From an uncultured Clostridiaceae bacterium (lineage in GTDB: Bacteria > Bacillota > Clostridia > DUPQ01), in NCBI GenBank assembly GCA_964563155.1, contig CAZLVL010000001.1, positions 88,008-120,007 on the forward strand: a DNA stretch of 32,000 nucleotides. The letters are read 5' to 3'. A model generated the notes under the pieces. That model worked only from the letters and a program-made list of their open reading frames with translations, did no database searches and was not told the origin of the DNA. Shown here one piece after another: positions 12,003 to 25,253 of the stretch (position 1 is the stretch's first letter; every line of letters starts with the position of its first letter). Both the position numbers and the translations under genes were made by a program.

Positions 12003-12004
12003 AT

Positions 12005-12130
12005 CTTGGACATATCCGAATATTTACATAGTGGGGGACCCGAGTTTTTTAGGGGTGAATCTTACAAAAAAAAAGAGGCGAAGCTTGGTATCGCTAACCC
12101 GTCAGCTAATCCCATAGGAGTACACCAAGG
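12005..12130 (+). promoter_or_regulatory. c-di-AMP riboswitch (ydaO/yuaA class)
   Basis: Conserved blocks are readable: GUGGGGGACCC, GGGGUGAAUC, AACCCGUCAGCUAAUCC. The closing helix is CUUGG (12005-12009) with CCAAG (12125-12129). This matches the B. subtilis ydaO leader as I recall it (GCGGGGGACCCA...GGGGUGAAUCC...AACCCGUCAGCUAACC). Confidence 0.85.
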
Positions 12131-12219
12131 CAAAATATGATATTTTTATTATATTTTTTTTGCTGTTGTGTATTTTATTTATATTCAGCAGTTAAATTAC
12201 AATTGGCGGGAGGCTATAA

Positions 12220-13467
12220 ATGAATGTCTTGTTAAAAATTGCAATTGTCATGGTGGTAGGCATTATAGGGGGCAAACTGGCAAAAATGCTTAAACTACCC
12301 AATGTATCCGGTTATTTAGTAGCCGGGCTATTTTTGGGTCCTTCTTTCTTTAACTTTGTCAGTAGTCAGGATTTAAATTCTTTTTCAATAATTAATGAAA
12401 TGGCTTTAGCAGCCATTGCCTTTAGTATAGGTAATGAATTCATTTGGAAAGAGATTAAAAAGATTGGAAAGTCCATATTTGTAATAACCCTTATGGAGGT
12501 TATTGGGGCAGTGCTAGTGGTCTTTTCTATTATGTTCTTTCTTTTTAAGCAACCCTTTTCCTTTTCAATTATCATAGCTTCCATGTCAGCAGCTACAGCA
12601 CCTGCTGCCACTTTATTAGTTATGAGACAATATAATGCAAAAGGCCCCTTGACCAGTGCCATACTTCCAGTAGTAGCTCTAGATGATGTTTTTGGCATAG
12701 CAATTTTTGGAATTGCCCTTTCTTTAGCTAGAATGACTGATAGTACGGAATCTTTTTCTATTCCTGCTATGATTTTTCAACCTCTGTTAGAAATTGGTGG
12801 ATCTGTTTTATTAGGTTTTGTTTTAGGAATAATATTAGTCTTTGTTACCGGAAAGATATTAAAAAGCAAGGACGAGATACAAGCAGTATCTTTAGCAGCT
12901 GTAGGCTTAAGCGCCGGCTTGTCCATTTTGCTCCACATCTCTCCTCTTCTTACTAGTATTGTTATGGGAACAGTATTAGTAAACTTTAAGCAAAAACCTG
13001 GCAAGATTTTCGAGTCTGTAAACACCTTTGCCACACCCTTGTACTTACTCTTTTTTACCCTAGCGGGAGCAAGTTTAGACCTTTCTATACTAAAGACTGT
13101 TGGTCTTATGGGTATAGCCTATGTCATAGCTAGAGGTGGTGGAAAGATGCTTGGTGCTTGGGCTGGAGCTGAAATGGTTAATGAAGTTCCAGTTATTAAG
13201 AAATATTTAGGCTTAGCCCTTTTACCCCAAGGAGGAATATCCATTGGTTTATTGGTATTGGTAAGACAATACTTGCCTGCCCACAGCGCTGCCATAAATG
13301 CCATTATTATGTTCAGCGTACTGATATATGAAGTGAGTGGACCTATTTTTGCAAAAATTGCTATAAGCAAAGCTGGAGAAATAAATATACCAGAAAAGCA
13401 AAAAAAAGATTTTCCATTTTTTAAAAGCAAAAAGGAAAAAACTATTTCACAATCAGTGAAAAAATAA
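12220..13467 (+). CDS. Cation:proton antiporter (CPA2/Na_H_Exchanger family), membrane domain only
   Basis: 415 aa with about 12 hydrophobic helices and a typical N-terminus (IAIVMVVGIIGGKLAKMLKLPNVSGYLVAGLFLGPS). No soluble RCK/KTN domain is attached. Confidence 0.85.
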   Translation: MNVLLKIAIVMVVGIIGGKLAKMLKLPNVSGYLVAGLFLGPSFFNFVSSQDLNSFSIINEMALAAIAFSIGNEFIWKEIKKIGKSIFVITLMEVIGAVLVVFSIMFFLFKQPFSFSIIIASMSAATAPAATLLVMRQYNAKGPLTSAILPVVALDDVFGIAIFGIALSLARMTDSTESFSIPAMIFQPLLEIGGSVLLGFVLGIILVFVTGKILKSKDEIQAVSLAAVGLSAGLSILLHISPLLTSIVMGTVLVNFKQKPGKIFESVNTFATPLYLLFFTLAGASLDLSILKTVGLMGIAYVIARGGGKMLGAWAGAEMVNEVPVIKKYLGLALLPQGGISIGLLVLVRQYLPAHSAAINAIIMFSVLIYEVSGPIFAKIAISKAGEINIPEKQKKDFPFFKSKKEKTISQSVKK

Positions 13468-17902: not shown

Positions 17903-18175
17903 ACCAAAGAAAAACCGCTGATTAAGAAGAGTAGGCGAAGAGATTTATTGTACAGGGAGTTGCAGATACTGAGATTGCAGCAAAGAAGGCTTCACTGAAT
18001 GGACTTATGAGGGCAGGACGAAAGGAAACGAGTAGCGCCTGACGGGATCTCCACCCGTTATAAAGGGAGCATATATGAGTGTATATGGAATGAGTGGGCA
18101 TTTTTGCCAATCAGGGTGGTACCGCAGGAGTATAATCTCTTGTCCCTAGTTTTAGGGATGAGGGATTTTTTTTAT
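17903..18175 (+). promoter_or_regulatory. T-box leader, tryptophan specifier (UGG)
   Basis: Stem I has AGUA, an AG bulge (AGGGAG), a distal UGAGA, and the specifier loop GAA-UGG-A (UGG at 18000-18002). The T-box sequence AAUCAGGGUGGUACCGCAGG is at 18109-18128. The terminator CTCTTGTCCCTA-gttt-TAGGGATGAGGG plus a T run is at 18137-18174. Confidence 0.85.
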
Positions 18176-18213: not shown

Positions 18214-19197
18214 ATGAAAAAAACAAAGAAAATTTTGGTGCTCACCTTGGCAATTTTATTAATTATTAGCCTTGCATCTTGCACCACAAAAGAAAAGGTA
18301 ATAACAATAGGTGTTATTCAGTATGCTCCCCATGGGTCTTTAGACAACTGTTATGATGGTTTTATATTAGGCTTAGAAGAAGCTGGCTTTGTTGACAAGG
18401 ACAATATCAAGATTGACTTTCAAAATGCCATGGGAGAAATGGATAATAGTGATTTATTGGCCTCTACTATGGTAGCCTCCAACTATGACATGCTGGTGGG
18501 TATTGCAACACCTGCAGCCATGAGTGCTTATGCAGCCAGTAAAAACACCTCTATTCCTGTAGTCTTTTCTGCAGTATCAGATGCTGTAGCAGCAGGAATA
18601 GTAAAATCTAACGAAATACCTGGATACAATGTAACCGGGACATCGGATGTATTACCTCTAGAAGAGCAAATGCAAATGATAAGAGATTTTTTACCAAAGG
18701 CTGAAAAGATAGGAATTATTTACACCACCAGTGAGCCAAACTCTGTTACTCATCTTAATATTTTTAAAGAGCTAGCTAAGGTGTATGGTTTTACTATTGT
18801 AGAAGCAGGTGTTACCAACGCATCAGAGGTATCTATTACTGCAGCTTCCTTGGTTGCAAAAGGAGTGGATTGCATTAATAACTTTACAGATAACAATGTG
18901 GTCAATAACTTATCTTCAGTAATTCATGAAGCAAACAAGGCCAATATACCGGTCTTTGGCTCTGAAATTGAGCAGGTGAAAATAGGGTGTCTTGCATCTA
19001 TGAGCATTGATTATGTAGCCTTGGGAGTGGAAACTGGTAAGATTGCAGCTCGGATTTTAAATGGAGAAGCAGCCTCTGAGATTCCTGTTTCTCTCATTTC
19101 CACCAGTGAACCTGTATACAACTCAGAGGTTGCCAACAGATTAGGTATAGCCATTCCTGACCAATATGTGACTGGTGATAATGATATGGCTAATTAG
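18214..19197 (+). CDS. ABC importer substrate-binding lipoprotein (COG2984 / ABC_sub_bind family; TrpX-like)
   Basis: 327 aa with signal peptide and lipobox LASC. It has the family-typical ITIGVIQYAPHGSLD start. First gene after the Trp T-box. Confidence 0.8.
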   Translation: MKKTKKILVLTLAILLIISLASCTTKEKVITIGVIQYAPHGSLDNCYDGFILGLEEAGFVDKDNIKIDFQNAMGEMDNSDLLASTMVASNYDMLVGIATPAAMSAYAASKNTSIPVVFSAVSDAVAAGIVKSNEIPGYNVTGTSDVLPLEEQMQMIRDFLPKAEKIGIIYTTSEPNSVTHLNIFKELAKVYGFTIVEAGVTNASEVSITAASLVAKGVDCINNFTDNNVVNNLSSVIHEANKANIPVFGSEIEQVKIGCLASMSIDYVALGVETGKIAARILNGEAASEIPVSLISTSEPVYNSEVANRLGIAIPDQYVTGDNDMAN

Positions 19198-19214: not shown

Positions 19215-20126
19215 ATGATTATTATCAACCTTTTACAAAACATCCTACAAGAGGGCTTTATCTATGGGATTATGGCTATGGGAGTTTACATTAGCTACAA
19301 GGTTATGGACTTTCCCGATTTGTCGGTTGATGGAACCTTTCCTCTTGGAATGTGCTTAACAGCAGCCCTCATAAATGCAGGGGTTAATCCCCTGCTAGCT
19401 TCCTTTCTAGCATTTTTAGCTGGCCTTATAGCTGGGTCTGTTACAGGTCTTATTCATGTAAAGCTAAAAATTACAGATCTACTTTCTGGTATCTTAGTTA
19501 TGACAGCTATGTGGTCTGTAAATTTAGTTATTACAAGAGGGTCTGCTGTTTTACCTTTTTACAACAAACCTACTTTTTTTAAAGGAAAATTCATAGACCT
19601 ACTACCTAGCTTTCTGAATAATTACTCCTCTTTAGTGATAACTTTTCTTTTTATGATGCTAGTAAAAATACTAATTGATTTGTATCTAAAAACAAAATCT
19701 GGTCTTTTGCTAAGGGCAGCTGGAGACAACTCTCAATTTGTAACCTCTTTATCAAAAGACCCTGGTCTAGCTAAGATAAGGGGTCTTGCCATAGGAAATG
19801 GCTGTACTGCCCTGGCTGGCTCTATTTTGGCTCAATACAATGAGTCAGCTAATGTTTCAGCAGGAACTGGAATGGTAGTTATGGCTTTAGCTAGTGTAAT
19901 CATTGGAGAGAGCATCTTTAGAAAAGTTACTTTTCTAAAAGGAACTACAACAGCTCTTTTTGGAGCAATTATATATAGGTTGTGTCTCTTACTTGCTATG
20001 CAATTAGGCTTACCTACCAACTATTTGAAGCTCTTAATGGCATTAATATTTGTAATTGCCTTAGTGTCTAACAACTATTTTTCAAGAGGGAGGAAAAAAC
20101 AATATGTCCAACCAGAAAGACTTTAA
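19215..20126 (+). CDS. ABC importer permease (COG4120; TrpY-like)
   Basis: 303 aa polytopic membrane protein, placed between the binding protein and the ATPase. Confidence 0.8.
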   Translation: MIIINLLQNILQEGFIYGIMAMGVYISYKVMDFPDLSVDGTFPLGMCLTAALINAGVNPLLASFLAFLAGLIAGSVTGLIHVKLKITDLLSGILVMTAMWSVNLVITRGSAVLPFYNKPTFFKGKFIDLLPSFLNNYSSLVITFLFMMLVKILIDLYLKTKSGLLLRAAGDNSQFVTSLSKDPGLAKIRGLAIGNGCTALAGSILAQYNESANVSAGTGMVVMALASVIIGESIFRKVTFLKGTTTALFGAIIYRLCLLLAMQLGLPTNYLKLLMALIFVIALVSNNYFSRGRKKQYVQPERL

Positions 20127-20919
20127 AGAGAAAAATCCTGTAAATATAGTTGAGTTGAAGGATATTAAAAAGACCTTTAACAAGGGCTATGTTAATCAAG
20201 TAGAGCTATTTAATAATTTTAACTTAACAATACAAAAAGGCTCCTTTACAACAGTTGTGGGAAGCAATGGCTCAGGTAAAACCAGTCTATTGAACATAAT
20301 CTGTGGAAATATATCTATTGACCAGGGATACATTTTTTTAAACGGTGAAGATATTAACCACTACAAGGAGTATCAAAGAGCTAAAAAGATTGGTAGGGTT
20401 TTTCAAGATCCCTCTCTAGGAACTTGTCCCCAATTGACTATTTTAGAAAATCTATCCCTTGCCTATAACAAGAACAAAGCTTTTTCATTGAGTCCAGCTA
20501 TTAGTAAAAGAAATATTGAATTTTTTGGCTCTCAATTAAAACTATTAGAAATGGGTCTAGAAAACAAGATGACCCAAAAGGTAGCTACCTTGTCTGGAGG
20601 CCAAAGGCAAGCCCTTGCCCTTTTAATTTCCACCTTAACTCCCATTGACCTTTTAATCTTAGATGAACATACAGCAGCCCTTGACCCTAAATCTTCTGAA
20701 ACAATAATGGCCTTAACAGATTCTTTTATTAAAAGCAAAAAGATAACCACCTTAATGGTTACTCATAACCTTAGGTATGCTGTAGATTACGGAGATAGAA
20801 TTATAATGATGCACCAAGGAGATATGGTGGTAGATGCAAAAGAAAGAGAAAAAGAAAACTACCAGATAGAAGACCTTTTAAAGATTTTCAATTCCATATC
20901 CATAGAATGTGGTAATTAA
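20104..20919 (+). CDS. ABC importer ATP-binding protein (COG1101; TrpZ-like)
   Basis: 271 aa with Walker A GSNGSGKT, signature LSGGQRQ, Walker B LLILDEHT and H-loop VTHN. GGGAGG SD. It overlaps the permease gene by 23 nt. Confidence 0.85.
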   Translation: MSNQKDFKEKNPVNIVELKDIKKTFNKGYVNQVELFNNFNLTIQKGSFTTVVGSNGSGKTSLLNIICGNISIDQGYIFLNGEDINHYKEYQRAKKIGRVFQDPSLGTCPQLTILENLSLAYNKNKAFSLSPAISKRNIEFFGSQLKLLEMGLENKMTQKVATLSGGQRQALALLISTLTPIDLLILDEHTAALDPKSSETIMALTDSFIKSKKITTLMVTHNLRYAVDYGDRIIMMHQGDMVVDAKEREKENYQIEDLLKIFNSISIECGN

Positions 20920-20990: not shown

Positions 20991-22973
20991 TTACTCAAAC
21001 TGACTTTCATGCTTTTCAAAAAAGTCTTCTCTAGGGTTTAAGAAAATGGTTGGGCTATTTTTGTCTATTAACATGTCTTCAACTGTTAAAAAGGCATTAT
21101 CCCAACTCCATATTTCAGGTTTAAAACCAATATATTTTCTTACCAACTCACAGCCCTTTGGAGCTACAGGGTGAAGTAGAAGAAGAGCTGTCTTTATTCC
21201 ATAAAAGCAATCAATTAGGATTTGTTTTCTCAACTCTTCATTGTTTTCTTTTTCGACAATCCTAATATTATTAGACCAATGCTTATTTAACATTCTCACA
21301 TAACTATCTAAAACATAGGCGATTCTGTGAATATCATTGTTATACATGTGAAGCTCATACTCTAAAAGCGCTGCATGTGACTCGTCAACTATCTCAGGTG
21401 AAACCTCTCCAATTTGGACCTTAGAATCATAATTATCTTGGATTGAGTATAGACAAGACCTAACTAATCTATTAAATACATTGGTTAAAAGATTTCCCTC
21501 TTTAACAGCAGGGTCTACACCAATTTGTTCTTCTTTAGGCAAAAGAGCTAAAGGCTTAAAACTAGAACTTTTACTTGTAAGGCCTAGACTTATAAAGTGC
21601 ATTCTCAATTGTTCTGCTGTGTAACATTCCAAAAGGTCATTTGCCATAGGTGGCTTAATAGCTGAGCTACTAGAGGCCTTTTTATCCATAAACAAGATAT
21701 GCTTATTGGCAATTATTAAGGGCAAGTTTAACTTAGTCATATCAATATCTTCAAACTTATCACTTCTTAGGGCAGAGAACATGGCCATTTCTGCAATTGC
21801 ATAAAAGTATATATTATCCTCACCAATAAATTGGTAGACCTTTGAATCTTCATGGTCCCACCAATCTTTCCAGTCTTGGTCATTTTTCTTTGTTTCAATC
21901 AGGTAGCTTCTTAGAAATGATACAGGAGCCCATAAAGATTCTGGCCATACCCAGAAGGTTAAATCTTTAAGGCCTTCTTTTTCCATTACAGGTACTCCCC
22001 ATTCAATATTTCCTGATAGTCTAAAAGGAACTAGGGTCTTTCCTGTCCTATAGCGGATTTGCTTTTCATTTAAAACATCTCTTGCCTTATCTCTATCTTC
22101 TAGAGACTTAAAGACAAAGGTTACAGAAGGCTTTCTTTCTTCTTCAATTAATTCATGATTTGGAAAGAAAGATCTCAAATCCTTCATATCCTCAATTTGC
22201 TTTTTTTGCACATATATTACTGGAGGCTTTAAGAACTCTTCTATGGCATCTAAAACAAACTTTCTAGTTACAGAATTGGCTCTTAAGTTGTCCACCTGTT
22301 CTTGCATTTTGTCAGCAAACTCTTCTAGCTTAAAATACCAGTTTTCCACATTTACAATGGTGGGTTTTAGCCCAGACAAAGCACTTTTTGGATCGATTAA
22401 CTCCTCTGGCATATATTGATGTCCAGCTGCACATTCATCTGCATAGGCCTTATCTGACACACAGCCCTCAAAGGGGCATCTTCCTTCAACCTGTCTTCCA
22501 TTTAGTAGTACTTCAAACTGAGGATCAAAAAATTGAGGTGTGGACATCTTGTTCAAATAGCCCTTATCATAAAGCTGGCTAAAGACCTCATCAGAGACCT
22601 TTTTATGAACCTGCTTATCTTCAAAAAGACCAGAAGCACCAAAATGGTTAAGACTTATTTGATAATCATCTAAGGTCTTTTTTTGCTTATCGTGATTGTA
22701 CTTAACGAAATCACTTATATCAGAAAAGTCCTTATTACCCTCTTCTTGAATTTTTCTATAGCTTTCCACAATTGGAGAACCATAGCAATCGGTACCTGAT
22801 ACAAAAATTACATTATCAGCACCTATCCTGTCTCGCATAAATCTTGCAAATACATCTGCGTGTACAAACAAGCCCCCTATATGTCCAAAATGCAATTCTT
22901 TGTTACCATAGGGCATTCCTCCGGTAATAACTGCTCTTTTTGGAAATTTTGGTCTATTATCTATATTTTTCAT
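20991..22973 (-). CDS. Divergent methionyl-tRNA-synthetase-family (class I) enzyme; substrate uncertain
   Basis: 660 aa with a GGAGG SD. It has a HIGH motif (HFGH, PYGNKELHFGHIGGLFVHADVFARFMR). The connective-peptide region aligns with E. coli MetG (FFDPQ..GRCPFEGC...ECAAGH..PEELIDPKS), as does FIGEDNIYF. Anticodon-domain residues N..R (NRLVR) and KHW are retained. However, KMSKS reads KASSS (21666-21680) and pocket residues differ (see findings). Confidence 0.75.
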   Translation of the reverse strand: MKNIDNRPKFPKRAVITGGMPYGNKELHFGHIGGLFVHADVFARFMRDRIGADNVIFVSGTDCYGSPIVESYRKIQEEGNKDFSDISDFVKYNHDKQKKTLDDYQISLNHFGASGLFEDKQVHKKVSDEVFSQLYDKGYLNKMSTPQFFDPQFEVLLNGRQVEGRCPFEGCVSDKAYADECAAGHQYMPEELIDPKSALSGLKPTIVNVENWYFKLEEFADKMQEQVDNLRANSVTRKFVLDAIEEFLKPPVIYVQKKQIEDMKDLRSFFPNHELIEEERKPSVTFVFKSLEDRDKARDVLNEKQIRYRTGKTLVPFRLSGNIEWGVPVMEKEGLKDLTFWVWPESLWAPVSFLRSYLIETKKNDQDWKDWWDHEDSKVYQFIGEDNIYFYAIAEMAMFSALRSDKFEDIDMTKLNLPLIIANKHILFMDKKASSSSAIKPPMANDLLECYTAEQLRMHFISLGLTSKSSSFKPLALLPKEEQIGVDPAVKEGNLLTNVFNRLVRSCLYSIQDNYDSKVQIGEVSPEIVDESHAALLEYELHMYNNDIHRIAYVLDSYVRMLNKHWSNNIRIVEKENNEELRKQILIDCFYGIKTALLLLHPVAPKGCELVRKYIGFKPEIWSWDNAFLTVEDMLIDKNSPTIFLNPREDFFEKHESQFE

Positions 22974-22992: not shown

Positions 22993-23224
22993 AAAAAAGC
23001 CCCTAATCTCATATATTTAGGGGCGATTGTTTATCGCGGTGCCACCCTACTTTACATATGCGTCACCACATATGCCTTGCAAAGTAATCTTACTTTTGTT
23101 CTATAAGGGGAACAACCCATATTGGCTCCAAGGCTTGGTTCATGGGGTTTGAAATACCCTTTCTCATCTTCTGGGTTTTCTGTAAATTCAAGATCCGCAC
23201 TACTCTTCTTTTCATTGCCGTCTT
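22993..23224 (-). promoter_or_regulatory. T-box leader (minus strand) of the MetRS-like gene; specifier assignment ambiguous
   Basis: Read on the minus strand. K-turn GGC-AAU-GA ... GA-GCC, AGUA, AG bulge AGAAA, distal UGAGA, and a specifier loop containing AUGAACCAAGC. The T-box AGUAGGGUGGCACCGCG is the rc of 23035-23051. The terminator GCCCCTAA-atatatgaga-TTAGGGGC plus T6 is the rc of 22993-23024. Confidence 0.85.
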
Positions 23225-23230
23225 TTCCAA

Positions 23231-23260
23231 AGTATAAAATGAAAGGTAAGCTTTTGTCAA
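23231..23260 (-). promoter_or_regulatory. Sigma-A promoter of the minus-strand T-box leader
   Basis: The rc reads TTGACA (23260-23255), an 18 nt spacer, TATACT (23236-23231). It overlaps the stop codon of the upstream HAD gene. Confidence 0.55.
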
Positions 23261-24219
23261 ACTAAAGCCTGAAATATGTGGTAAATTTGCTCATCTAAAA
23301 AATCTTCAACCAAGATATTGCTACCCAGCTCTTTATGAAGCTTTTGTTGATATGTCATAGAAGATGATAGCCTACTCATGGTTATGGCATCCATTTCTAC
23401 GCCAGCGCTTATCTCGGCTCTTCCATCTCCCACCACTAAAACAGCTCTAGGGTCAATGGAGAGCTTTTTTACTAAATCATTCATTATTACATTCTTAGGT
23501 ACTTTGTCTGTCCAGGTAGAGCCAATAATGTCTTCAATGAGTTTTCCACGGCCTATGCTGTAGCCTAGGGTTTCCACCTCTTCAAACATACCCATTCCTT
23601 TTTCTACCACTGCCCCAGTGACAAAGTAGTTTTTAACCTTATTATCTTTTAGATATTGTAAAAACTTAAAAGAGCCTTCAATTCGAAAATCTTCTGGCTT
23701 TATTTTAGCTAGCTCTAAATTTTTATCCCTACAAAAACCATTAAGCACCTGTTCATAAAACTTAAAAAGCCTAGGGGTATTATTAATAAGCATTTGCTTC
23801 ATTTCTTTTGTTTCAGAAAAATCATCAAATACTTCAATTCCTTGCCATATTAGAGCTATTATTTCTTTATTGGTTTTTTCCTTATGGTTTACAATTACTG
23901 TTTTTTCTTCTACAGCCCGCCTTATGGCCCATTCCATCTGGGTTAGGGCAGATAGTCCAGCAGACTCTACACAAAATCTATCCGTCTCTTCTAAGACTTT
24001 TGTGCCAGCTGCATTTATGAGTCTAGTAATATTTTCTTTACTATCATAACCTTCATTTAAGCCATTTTCTATTACATCATGTAAAACAATAGACATGACA
24101 GGAGGCCAGTCTCTAATAAGAGAATGGGTCCCGTCAATGTCATGAAAAGCATGGGTAATCACTCGATCCTCAAAAGGATTTATTATTAATGAGGATTTTA
24201 TAAAGTTAGCTTTAATCAT
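23257..24219 (-). CDS. HAD-superfamily hydrolase/mutase-like protein with a very large cap insertion
   Basis: 320 aa. Motif I is FHDIDGTHS, motif II FVTGA, motif IV VVGDGRAE. About 170 aa lie between motifs I and II. Confidence 0.65.
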   Translation of the reverse strand: MIKANFIKSSLIINPFEDRVITHAFHDIDGTHSLIRDWPPVMSIVLHDVIENGLNEGYDSKENITRLINAAGTKVLEETDRFCVESAGLSALTQMEWAIRRAVEEKTVIVNHKEKTNKEIIALIWQGIEVFDDFSETKEMKQMLINNTPRLFKFYEQVLNGFCRDKNLELAKIKPEDFRIEGSFKFLQYLKDNKVKNYFVTGAVVEKGMGMFEEVETLGYSIGRGKLIEDIIGSTWTDKVPKNVIMNDLVKKLSIDPRAVLVVGDGRAEISAGVEMDAITMSRLSSSMTYQQKLHKELGSNILVEDFLDEQIYHIFQALV

Positions 24220-24221
24220 AT

Positions 24222-25253
24222 TTATTTTTCTTCAGTACAAAGACCAATCAAATCGTTTACATCGCAGGTTGCCATTCTAAGAATGGAGTCTCCAGCTGCA
24301 TAGTATATTCTGATTTGATTGTCATCATCCAAAAGTGCTCCGCAAGGGAACAAAGCATTTACTCTATAGCCTTCTACAGTTTCGTAATGTCCTTCAGGAA
24401 TAATTAAAGGACGTTTGCTCATTCCTATTACCTTGGAAGGATCTTGTAGGTCTAAAAGAGCAACAGCTATGGTATATCTCTTCTTCCAGGTAGGTTCCCA
24501 ACCATTTTTACCTCTTGCAGGGTCAAAGTCTACTGCATGATAAAGCATAAGCCAGCCTTTATCGGTTTTAATTGGAGGAGCTCCAGGACCAATTTTTTCA
24601 TTGGCAAAAGGAACATGCTCAACACCTAGAACTAGTCTGGATTTTCCCCAGTAAACTAAATCTGGAGACTCAGAAAGCCAGATATCAAATTTCATCCCAT
24701 CTCTACCATAAACTGGCATAGGTCTTTCTAAACGGACATAGTTTCCATTTATTTTTTCTGGAAACAGTACCATATTTCTGTTTTCAGGTACTGACATAGA
24801 GATTACATCAAATTTCTTTAAATCTTTTGTTTCTGCAATTCCACCACAAACTCCGTGCTTTGTGTCCACTGCGAAACAAATTATATAGCGGTCATCCATA
24901 ACGGTTATTCTTGGGTCATACACCCTTATAACTTCGTCATCTGCCATGGCAAAACAAGGCTCAGGTTCAACCTTCCATTTAAGTCCATCATCACTAAAAG
25001 CTAGACCTAAATTGGTTCCATCAATTCTTTGTTCATCATATGAGCCATAGTCGTTTCTAAAAATCATGATATATTTGTTGTCATGTTTTACAACACCTGC
25101 ATTAAAGGTTAAAGCAGAAGCATAAGGAACATCGTGTCTACTTAGAATGGTTTCAGGGTAACGGGTAATAATTGGACTTGTTGAAAATAAGCTTTCATCC
25201 AATGCCTCTTGTGGGCAAGCATAAAGGACTTTGCGGGTTGCTTCATCTAACAT
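24222..25253 (-). CDS. GH130-family glycoside phosphorylase (beta-mannoside phosphorylase type)
   Basis: 343 aa with GH130 motifs: FNAGVVKHDNKYIMIFR, YDPRI (catalytic Asp context), ENRNMVLFPEKINGNYVRLERP (phosphate-binding Arg/Asn) and LMLYHAV. Confidence 0.8.
   Translation of the reverse strand: MLDEATRKVLYACPQEALDESLFSTSPIITRYPETILSRHDVPYASALTFNAGVVKHDNKYIMIFRNDYGSYDEQRIDGTNLGLAFSDDGLKWKVEPEPCFAMADDEVIRVYDPRITVMDDRYIICFAVDTKHGVCGGIAETKDLKKFDVISMSVPENRNMVLFPEKINGNYVRLERPMPVYGRDGMKFDIWLSESPDLVYWGKSRLVLGVEHVPFANEKIGPGAPPIKTDKGWLMLYHAVDFDPARGKNGWEPTWKKRYTIAVALLDLQDPSKVIGMSKRPLIIPEGHYETVEGYRVNALFPCGALLDDDNQIRIYYAAGDSILRMATCDVNDLIGLCTEEK

Follow-up and report, generated by a model that had tools for sequence, protein, structure and literature searches.

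A minus-strand T-box leader precedes a MetRS-like gene

We analysed a 32,000-nt stretch of DNA (the window) from an uncultured Clostridiaceae bacterium (GenBank assembly GCA_964563155.1, contig CAZLVL010000001.1, positions 88,008 to 120,007 of the forward strand), with attention to a leader RNA on its minus strand and to the gene behind it, which encodes a 660-aa class I tRNA-ligase-family protein derived from methionyl-tRNA synthetase (MetRS). Judged from its sequence, the leader is a complete and genuine transcriptional T-box that runs from the -35 hexamer at 23260 to the end of the U-run at 22993. In a permissive Rfam scan it matched the T-box covariance model RF00230 from model position 1 to 219 with 91.8 bits and an E-value of 1.2e-20, and an E-value of this size over the whole model excludes a chance match. 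The score falls 1.2 bits short of the Rfam gathering score of 93, and for this reason the default Rfam scan of the window left the leader unreported, returning only a Trp T-box (17909-18150) and a cyclic di-AMP (c-di-AMP) riboswitch. The shortfall itself is due to Stem II, which has been cleanly deleted (model positions 105-132). The features of the leader and its gene are as follows.

23231-23260, minus strand: sigma-70-type promoter directly 5' of the T-box start, with TTGACA, an 18-nt spacer and TATACT (11 of 12 consensus matches; pattern match alone)
23016-23224, minus strand: T-box leader, full-length RF00230 match (covariance model)
23125-23218, minus strand: Stem I (covariance-model alignment and RNAalifold)
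23135-23137, minus strand: predicted specifier triplet CAA (Gln), with GAA and a variable C (23138) before it and an invariant G (23134) after it
23096-23118, minus strand: Stem IIA/B pseudoknot element (covariance-model alignment, ortholog comparison and direct reading of the bases)
23054-23075, minus strand: Stem III, GCAUAUG-loop-CAUAUGU (covariance-model alignment)
23018-23049, minus strand: antiterminator, a helix-bulge-helix in the minimum free energy (MFE) fold of 23062-23012 and in the covariance-model alignment
22993-23024, minus strand: intrinsic terminator, with GCCCCUAA (23024-23017), a 10-nt loop, UUAGGGGC (23006-22999) and U6 (22998-22993)
20991-22973, minus strand: regulated gene for the 660-aa MetRS-derived class I tRNA-ligase-family protein, with the ribosome-binding site AAGGAGGG at 22984-22977 and ATG at 22973

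The promoter begins within the preceding gene, as its -35 hexamer overlaps the stop codon of an upstream HAD-hydrolase open reading frame (ORF). Stem I is made up of a K-turn (GC/AAUGAA...GGA/GC), a lower helix (AAG(A)/(C)CUU), a specifier loop with an AGUA/GAA S-turn, an upper helix, an AG bulge (ACAGAAA) and a distal loop. Read along the minus strand, the AGUA of the S-turn occupies 23204-23201, and GUGCGG...CCCCAU forms the upper helix; the GAA at 23141-23139 is followed by C-CAA-G-CCUU (23138-23130) and then by GGAGC. An AUG is found at 23143-23141, where it overlaps both the upper helix and the GAA of the S-turn.

In place of Stem II, AAUA alone separates GGAGCC from the IIA/B hairpin, GGG-UUGUUC-CCC (23118-23107). 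The loop of this hairpin, UUGUUC (23115-23110), and GAACAA (23101-23096) are complementary, and orthologous leaders preserve the match with altered bases. A full Stem II is retained in the orthologous leaders of loci L005, L006 and L011 (L005:2555-2600). Complete loss of Stem II together with retention of the IIA/B pseudoknot (window 23119-23124, minus strand) was seen in the clade of the window and in an ADurb.Bin146-like clade. The T-boxes known to be Stem II-less, those of the glycine type, also lack IIA/B, and a Stem II-less leader that keeps the IIA/B pseudoknot is for this reason an unusual, intermediate architecture.

Within the antiterminator, the conserved 14-nt T-box sequence AGGGUGGCACCGCG occupies 23048-23035 and contains the 7-nt bulge UGGCACC (23044-23038), of which UGGC (23044-23041) is the part that faces the tRNA 3' end. 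The terminator hairpin appeared in both the MFE and the centroid fold of 23062-22990; the terminator pattern scan accepts loops of up to 8 nt, hence this terminator, with its 10-nt loop, was unscored. The terminator 5' arm and the antiterminator 3' arm share GCCCCU, and the two structures are therefore mutually exclusive.

The specifier loop reads CAA when anchored at its 3' end

The RF00230 model and the rule of the T-box database TBDB both define the specifier as the triplet that stands before one purine and the helix below, so that the loop is anchored at its 3' end. When TBDB calls a specifier, it accordingly prefers positions 2-4 of the specifier bulge, counted from the 3' end (Marchand et al., bioRxiv 10.1101/2020.06.17.157016). 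On the 3' side of the loop RF00230 has eight consensus positions, GAA-a-uuc-a, and in these columns the window leader reads GAA-C-CAA-G. The Trp leader of the same window, which precedes an ABC transporter, reads GAA-(gap)-UGG-A, so that the specifier columns hold CAA in the one and UGG in the other. ABC transporters controlled by Trp T-boxes are a known target class in Firmicutes (PMC2494555), and this is why the Trp leader could serve as an internal control for the register. The loop 3' side measures 7 nt in the Trp leader; in the window leader it measures 8 nt with A.C taken as closing the loop and 9 nt otherwise, and at 8 nt it has exactly the length of the Rfam consensus (GAAauuca).

Comparison with orthologous leaders gave the same register. 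We sampled 14 genomic and 80 metagenomic loci encoding members of the protein family, together with the contexts of three individual proteins, and a profile built from the first leader alignment found a homologous leader in 48 of 101 family loci and none in 53. Eight genomic orthologous leaders scored above the Rfam gathering score (94.6-114.5 bits). All of the distinct leaders (about 32, from genomes and metagenomes) carry GAA-N-CAR-G at the 3' side of the specifier loop. About 24 of them have CAA as the triplet and about 8 have CAG; the base before the triplet is A, C or G and the base after it is always G. The same pattern held in an out-of-sample check, in which 11 loci (9 distinct leaders) found later by the profile search all read GAA-N-CAR-G. 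CAG occurs in two leader architectures, namely in a Stem II-less clade (L001, L003, L004, L013, L027) and in the Stem II-bearing leaders of L038, L039 and L045; the former clade is the nearest to the window, and its proteins are 75% identical to the window protein. A change between A and G confined to the third position, with the glutamine meaning kept, is the pattern that selection on a codon-anticodon pair would predict.

In a comparison of 23 leaders, each of the other frames changes its amino acid among closely related orthologs: the -1 frame gives ACA, CCA or GCA, the +1 frame AAG or AGG, and the +2 frame AGC, GGC, AGG, AGA or AGU. The AUG becomes ACG or AUA in L003, L005, L006 and L013. 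Stem I itself is supported by RNAalifold, which on 16 distinct orthologous Stem I sequences returned 18 pairs, with compensatory changes in 11. Four Watson-Crick pairs (GAGG/CCUC) make up the lower helix of L005 and L006 and so set the 3' boundary of the loop at the G; the loop-closing pair is G-C in these two leaders and A-U in L088. Taken together, these data make it very probable that the specifier of the window leader is CAA and that the leader is a Gln-type T-box reading tRNA-Gln.

Two further observations concern the distribution of the leaders. At the Lachnoclostridium sp. UBA6558 locus (L012:2560-2660) the leader is masked by a run of N and the Rfam scan was empty, with a T-box core visible 3' of the mask. 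The T-box-less family loci (53 of 101; among L007-L099) are mostly Lachnospiraceae-like, and a permissive Rfam scan of six of them found no alternative known leader RNA.

The discriminator-pairing base also points to tRNA-Gln

The base of the antiterminator bulge that pairs with the tRNA discriminator is C (UGGC) in about 20 and U (UGGU) in about 12 distinct leaders, and never A or G. Both would fit a tRNA with G73, C in a Watson-Crick pair and U in a wobble pair; in TBDB, U stands opposite G73 in 46% of Trp T-boxes (bioRxiv 10.1101/2020.06.17.157016). The discriminator of tRNA-Gln is G73 in E. coli, where it serves glutaminyl-tRNA synthetase (GlnRS) as a major identity element, and also in H. 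pylori (PMC2777447). The CAR specifier and the G73-pairing bulge thus both point to tRNA-Gln, and the non-AUG specifier and the UGGC are resolved at once.

The leader had been described before in a sequence-only reading, and the elements named there (AGUA, the helix, GAA, CCA, AUG and UGGC) are all present on the minus strand at the coordinates given for them; the limits stated there, 22993 and 23260, coincide with the end of the U-run and the -35 hexamer. Its view that the specifier is not AUG is borne out by both of the comparisons it had proposed, since the RF00230 alignment places CAA in the specifier columns and the orthologous leaders do not conserve the AUG while Stem I covaries in 11 of 18 pairs. 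It was right that neither Met nor Pro fits, CCA and AUG being unconserved and outside the specifier columns, and that UGGC predicts a G73 tRNA, in keeping with the C or U found at that base in all of the roughly 32 leaders. Its canonical register, the triplet directly after the GAA of the S-turn, has to be replaced, as RF00230 and the orthologs anchor the loop at its 3' end and give CAA. The loop 3' side, which it held to be 2 nt longer than usual, is indeed 1-2 nt longer than that of the Trp leader but equals the 8-nt Rfam consensus if A.C closes the loop. Among the three registers it had left possible, CAA is conserved as CAR, whereas AAG and AGC change meaning between orthologs. Glutamine was overlooked there, although CAA and G73 explain the two anomalies together.

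The regulated protein has departed from MetRS

The 660-aa protein fell below the cut-offs of the curated MetRS equivalog models, with 217.8 bits against 587 for NF001100 (NCBIfam metG) and 174 against 336 for TIGR00398; its score for the Pfam model tRNA-synt_1g was 209 bits. Its model matches were to MetRS and, weakly, also to the ValRS, LeuRS and IleRS types. The closest solved structure is the MetRS of Pyrococcus abyssi (1rqg; PF09334, E 1e-41), and the identity to E. coli MetG is 24%. More than 5,000 database relatives were found at E<=1e-20, a count that possibly includes canonical MetRSs, and they are common in Clostridia, Lachnospiraceae and allied groups. Isolates with the gene include Vallitalea okinawensis, Clostridium sp. 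KNHs205, Clostridium paridis, Oceanirhabdus seepicola and Inconstantimicrobium mannanitabidum.

We compared residues in 120 family members that are 58-75% identical to the window protein, taking E. coli MetRS as the reference for positions. The core of the catalytic machinery is invariant in all 120: the HIGH motif (H28, H31), which is intact and reads HFGH (28-31), P21, Y22, the zinc ligands C166, C171 and C181, D62 (equivalent to the alpha-amine-binding D52 of E. coli MetRS), and W343, A349 and P350 (equivalent to W253, A256 and P257). The zinc knuckle of the window protein consists of C166, C171, C181 and H185. At the KMSKS motif the protein reads K432-A-S-S-S; the first Lys is invariant, and all 120 members have Ser in place of the second. 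The aligned residues of P. abyssi MetRS are K-F-S-T-S, and loss of the second Lys therefore need not abolish activity.

The methionine pocket is substituted at five positions in every one of the 120 members (L13M, Y260F, I297N, H301Y and W305E). I297 and W305 are residues that we take to belong to the pocket from E. coli MetRS structures. L13, Y260 and H301 are listed as pocket residues of E. coli MetRS in PMC10535265. The W305-equivalent is E in 37 of 37 T-box-bearing loci; at T-box-less loci it is Q in 34 and E in 27, with Q also at L010, and a Christensenella member with 48% identity falls in the group with E or Q at this position. The change from a hydrophobic to a polar pocket argues for a different amino acid. 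Glutamine is an isostere of methionine, and bonds between its amide and the Asn, Tyr and Glu/Gln of the pocket are conceivable.

The family also has a specific insertion of about 70 aa at residues ~250-320 (window 22014-22223, minus strand), after the zinc-knuckle/CP region. No Pfam match to this insertion was found. It was predicted as a compact alpha/beta unit with a predicted local distance difference test (pLDDT) score of about 85, the best part of an otherwise poor AlphaFold2 model, and its position suggests that it contacts the tRNA acceptor stem. The model, built on a 13-sequence alignment, had a mean pLDDT of 66.6 and a predicted template modelling (pTM) score of 0.50, with the active-site loops and the KMSKS region below 50, and it was left unused for pocket geometry.

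Two conventional assignments do not fit. The curated-model scores, the re-lined pocket and the non-AUG specifier set the protein apart from an orthodox MetRS, and it has no homology to the GlnRS/GluRS catalytic domain of a canonical GlnRS (class Ib, related to GluRS). The sequence-only reading had connected the odd leader with an atypical enzyme downstream, and the scores and the pocket agree with it. As the enzyme is not a normal MetRS, a specifier other than Met is not contradictory.

Evidence against glutamine and alternative readings

Several observations weigh against glutamine, either as the specifier or as the substrate. In the alignment of 16 Stem I sequences RNAalifold paired just 3 bp below the loop, leaving 9 nt unpaired, and the consensus loop-closing pair is mismatched (A.C, A.G or A.A) in most leaders, the window leader included; when the closing position is taken as unpaired, the mechanical positions-2-4 rule gives AAG or AGG. 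Automated pipelines may well mis-call the specifier of leaders with such a degenerate closing pair. The window leader is below the gathering score (91.8 against 93 bits) and has lost Stem II. On the side of the tRNA, ARAGORN found no tRNA-Gln and one tRNA-Gly in the window and about 400 kb of fetched loci, and the G73 of the host tRNA-Gln is presumed from E. coli and H. pylori.

On the side of the enzyme, the regulated gene has no recognisable homology link to glutamine, as family-model searches with the 660-aa protein found neither GlnRS/GluRS catalytic-domain nor GatCAB homology. The anticodon triad N391/R395/W461 of E. coli MetRS is moreover retained as N501, R505 and W566, with N501 and R505 in 120 of 120 members and position 566 occupied by W in 102, Y in 13 and F in 4. 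According to PMC10535265, these three residues read the CAU anticodon and are strictly conserved among MetRSs. C34 is common to the CAU and CUG anticodons, and the helix beside the triad carries invariant changes (D456N, N452I/V and a 2-residue deletion before W461).

The sub-gathering score and the deleted Stem II could also be taken as signs of a relaxed or decaying T-box, in which tRNA discrimination is lost or several tRNAs are sensed and CAAG is conserved for structure. The degenerate loop-closing pair and the absence of a T-box from 53 of 101 family loci would agree with this, and T-boxes with alternative reading frames are known from TBDB (bioRxiv 10.1101/2020.06.17.157016). Against decay, the K-turn, S-turn, distal platform, IIA/B pseudoknot, T-box sequence, terminator and promoter are all intact and conserved across clades, the specifier varies between A and G at its third position only with the glutamine meaning kept, and the discriminator-pairing base is confined to C or U. 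We consider a relaxed T-box unlikely.

If the +1 frame were the true register, the leader would be a lysine T-box, or an arginine T-box where the loop reads CAGG, and the enzyme would serve a basic amino acid held by a salt bridge to Glu395. AAG does fall on bulge positions 2-4, counted from the 3' end, when only the 3 bp of the RNAalifold consensus are paired below the loop, and E395 replaces W305 in all T-box-bearing members. The pocket position is however Q in 34 T-box-less loci and at L010, so that a salt bridge is not family-wide, and the +1 frame becomes AGG in about 8 leaders of two architectures, which would require a switch of amino acid between orthologs that are 75% identical. After the +1-frame triplet all four bases (C, G, A and U) occur in place of a conserved purine. 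UGGC, which needs G73, is found in 8 of 18 CAA leaders (L028 counted as CAA), and bacterial tRNA-Lys has A73. Lys T-boxes in TBDB, for their part, prefer AAA (bioRxiv 10.1101/2020.06.17.157016). A basic amino acid is thus quite improbable.

The two triplets that catch the eye in the window leader, CCA (Pro) directly 3' of the GAA and the helix-overlapping AUG (Met) at 23143-23141, the latter matching the MetRS-like gene downstream, fare worse. CCA is found in just 2 of 23 leaders, with ACA or GCA in its orthologs; the AUG sits in the helix and S-turn and is the triplet that turns into ACG or AUA at four loci; the covariance model puts neither in the specifier columns, and UGGC is mismatched to the A73 of tRNA-Pro or tRNA-Met. 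We regard both as highly improbable. The same holds for the +2-frame AGC (Ser) at 23135-23133, for although bacterial tRNA-Ser has G73 and serine would be compatible with the bulge, orthologs read GGC, AGG, AGA or AGU in this frame and the triplet lacks a 3' purine and overlaps the helix closing pair, which leaves it hardly any credibility.

Proposed function and mechanism

With CAA as the specifier, the leader would work as follows. Transcription would start from the promoter at ~23231-23260 on the minus strand, and Stem I would dock the elbow and the anticodon of the tRNA. CAA (23137-23135), held one purine (G23134) above the lower helix, would pair with the UUG anticodon of tRNA-Gln. When the tRNA-Gln is uncharged, its free 3' end G73-C-C-A (5'-GCCA-3') would pair with the UGGC (23044-23041) of the antiterminator bulge, and this pairing would stabilise the antiterminator (23049-23018) over the terminator (23024-22993) and allow read-through into the MetRS-like gene. 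Charged Gln-tRNA-Gln would be unable to make the bulge contact, so that the terminator forms and transcription ends at the U-run. What the sequence comparisons show directly is the T-box architecture, the register with its conservation, the competing terminator and antiterminator, and the divergence of the enzyme from MetRS. The identity of the host tRNA as tRNA-Gln, its binding to the leader, the antitermination and the role of the enzyme are inferred.

Going by what T-box regulons usually do, the enzyme would be expected to increase the supply of charged tRNA-Gln, and attachment of glutamine to tRNA-Gln by the enzyme itself would be the simplest guess. Among the readings that survive, one suggested by this reasoning together with the altered pocket is a family of glutaminyl-tRNA synthetases derived from a MetRS scaffold whose pocket was re-lined with Asn, Tyr and Glu/Gln for glutamine. 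We put this forward tentatively, as a possibility that is rather doubtful at present, among other reasons because the CAU-reading triad is retained. For a MetRS-derived GlnRS, D456N and N452I/V may alter the anticodon helix so that it accepts YUG instead of CAU.

Genomic context

The MetRS-like gene is monocistronic with mutually unrelated neighbours in the window organism, a 4.4-Mb JGI genome, Vallitalea okinawensis, two Lachnospiraceae and Christensenella, and the context therefore yields no clue to its function. At L007:576-2951, in a Lachnospiraceae metagenome-assembled genome, the MetRS-like gene lies directly 3' of a cytidylyltransferase-like and an aminotransferase-like ORF in an apparent operon, an arrangement absent from L008; the functions of these neighbours are guesses from their N-terminal sequences alone.

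In the window, a GH130 (mannoside phosphorylase-like) gene and the HAD-hydrolase gene lie 5' of the leader (23257-25253, minus strand). On the opposite strand the Trp T-box at 17909-18150 (RF00230, 99.5 bits, specifier UGG, bulge UGGU) precedes a three-gene ABC transporter, consisting of a PF04392 substrate-binding protein, a permease and an ATPase (ORFs 18214-19197, 19215-20126 and 20104-20919), and these transporter genes converge on the MetRS-like gene. The c-di-AMP (ydaO-type) riboswitch at 12004-12135 (plus strand, 66.1 bits) is followed downstream by a Na+/H+-exchanger-family gene (PF00999, ORF 12220-13467), an ordinary-looking arrangement.

Comparison with known systems

The window leader shares with RF00230 T-boxes the K-turn, the AGUA/GAA S-turn, the AG bulge and distal loop, the IIA/B pseudoknot, Stem III, the UGGN bulge and a mutually exclusive terminator. 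It differs in that its clade lacks Stem II, which most but not all non-glycine T-boxes have, in the usually mismatched closing pair, and in the purine after the specifier, which is G in every orthologous leader. Gln T-boxes exist in TBDB, where they are among the rarest classes and prefer a codon with a 3' A (bioRxiv 10.1101/2020.06.17.157016). The window leader resembles them in its CAA-preferring specifier, in the UGGN base that pairs with the tRNA discriminator and in the rarity of the class, but it controls a MetRS-derived paralog and not a GlnRS, an amidotransferase, a glutamine transporter or a biosynthesis gene.

The protein in turn shares with MetRSs of the E. coli and archaeal type the Rossmann fold with HIGH, the zinc knuckle, D62 and a helical anticodon-binding domain with equivalents of the triad, and differs from them in the changed pocket, KASSS in place of KMSKS, the insertion of about 70 aa and a specifier that would be Gln rather than Met. 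A parallel in regulation is offered by aaRS paralogs under T-box control that were assigned a role from their specifier, for example the class I LysRS gene lysK of Bacillus cereus (PMC2916919), likewise a second, atypical synthetase behind its own T-box, for which the specifier was the main clue to the tRNA pool. There the enzyme family matched the specifier, whereas here the MetRS family and the Gln specifier disagree. Our search of the literature on T-boxes, MetRS paralogs, tRNA-Gln and the evolution of aaRSs found a description of neither the protein family nor the pairing of a Gln T-box with a MetRS-like gene, which does not prove that none exists.

A T-box reports the tRNA pool that its gene serves independently of the annotation of that gene, and about 32 leaders here indicate tRNA-Gln for a protein annotated as 'methionine--tRNA ligase' or 'class I tRNA ligase family protein'. 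The case also shows a pitfall in the calling of specifiers, as the register needs to be fixed from the loop's 3' end and not from the S-turn. At the minimum, the finding would correct a widespread mis-annotation and supply a rare, clean example of a Gln-class T-box. If the possible derivation of a GlnRS from MetRS were true, it would constitute a third route to Gln-tRNA-Gln in anaerobic Firmicutes, beside canonical GlnRS and GluRS plus GatCAB. It would then also be a natural case of an aaRS that changed both its amino-acid and its tRNA identity across subclasses, with relevance to the evolution of the genetic code and to aaRS engineering.

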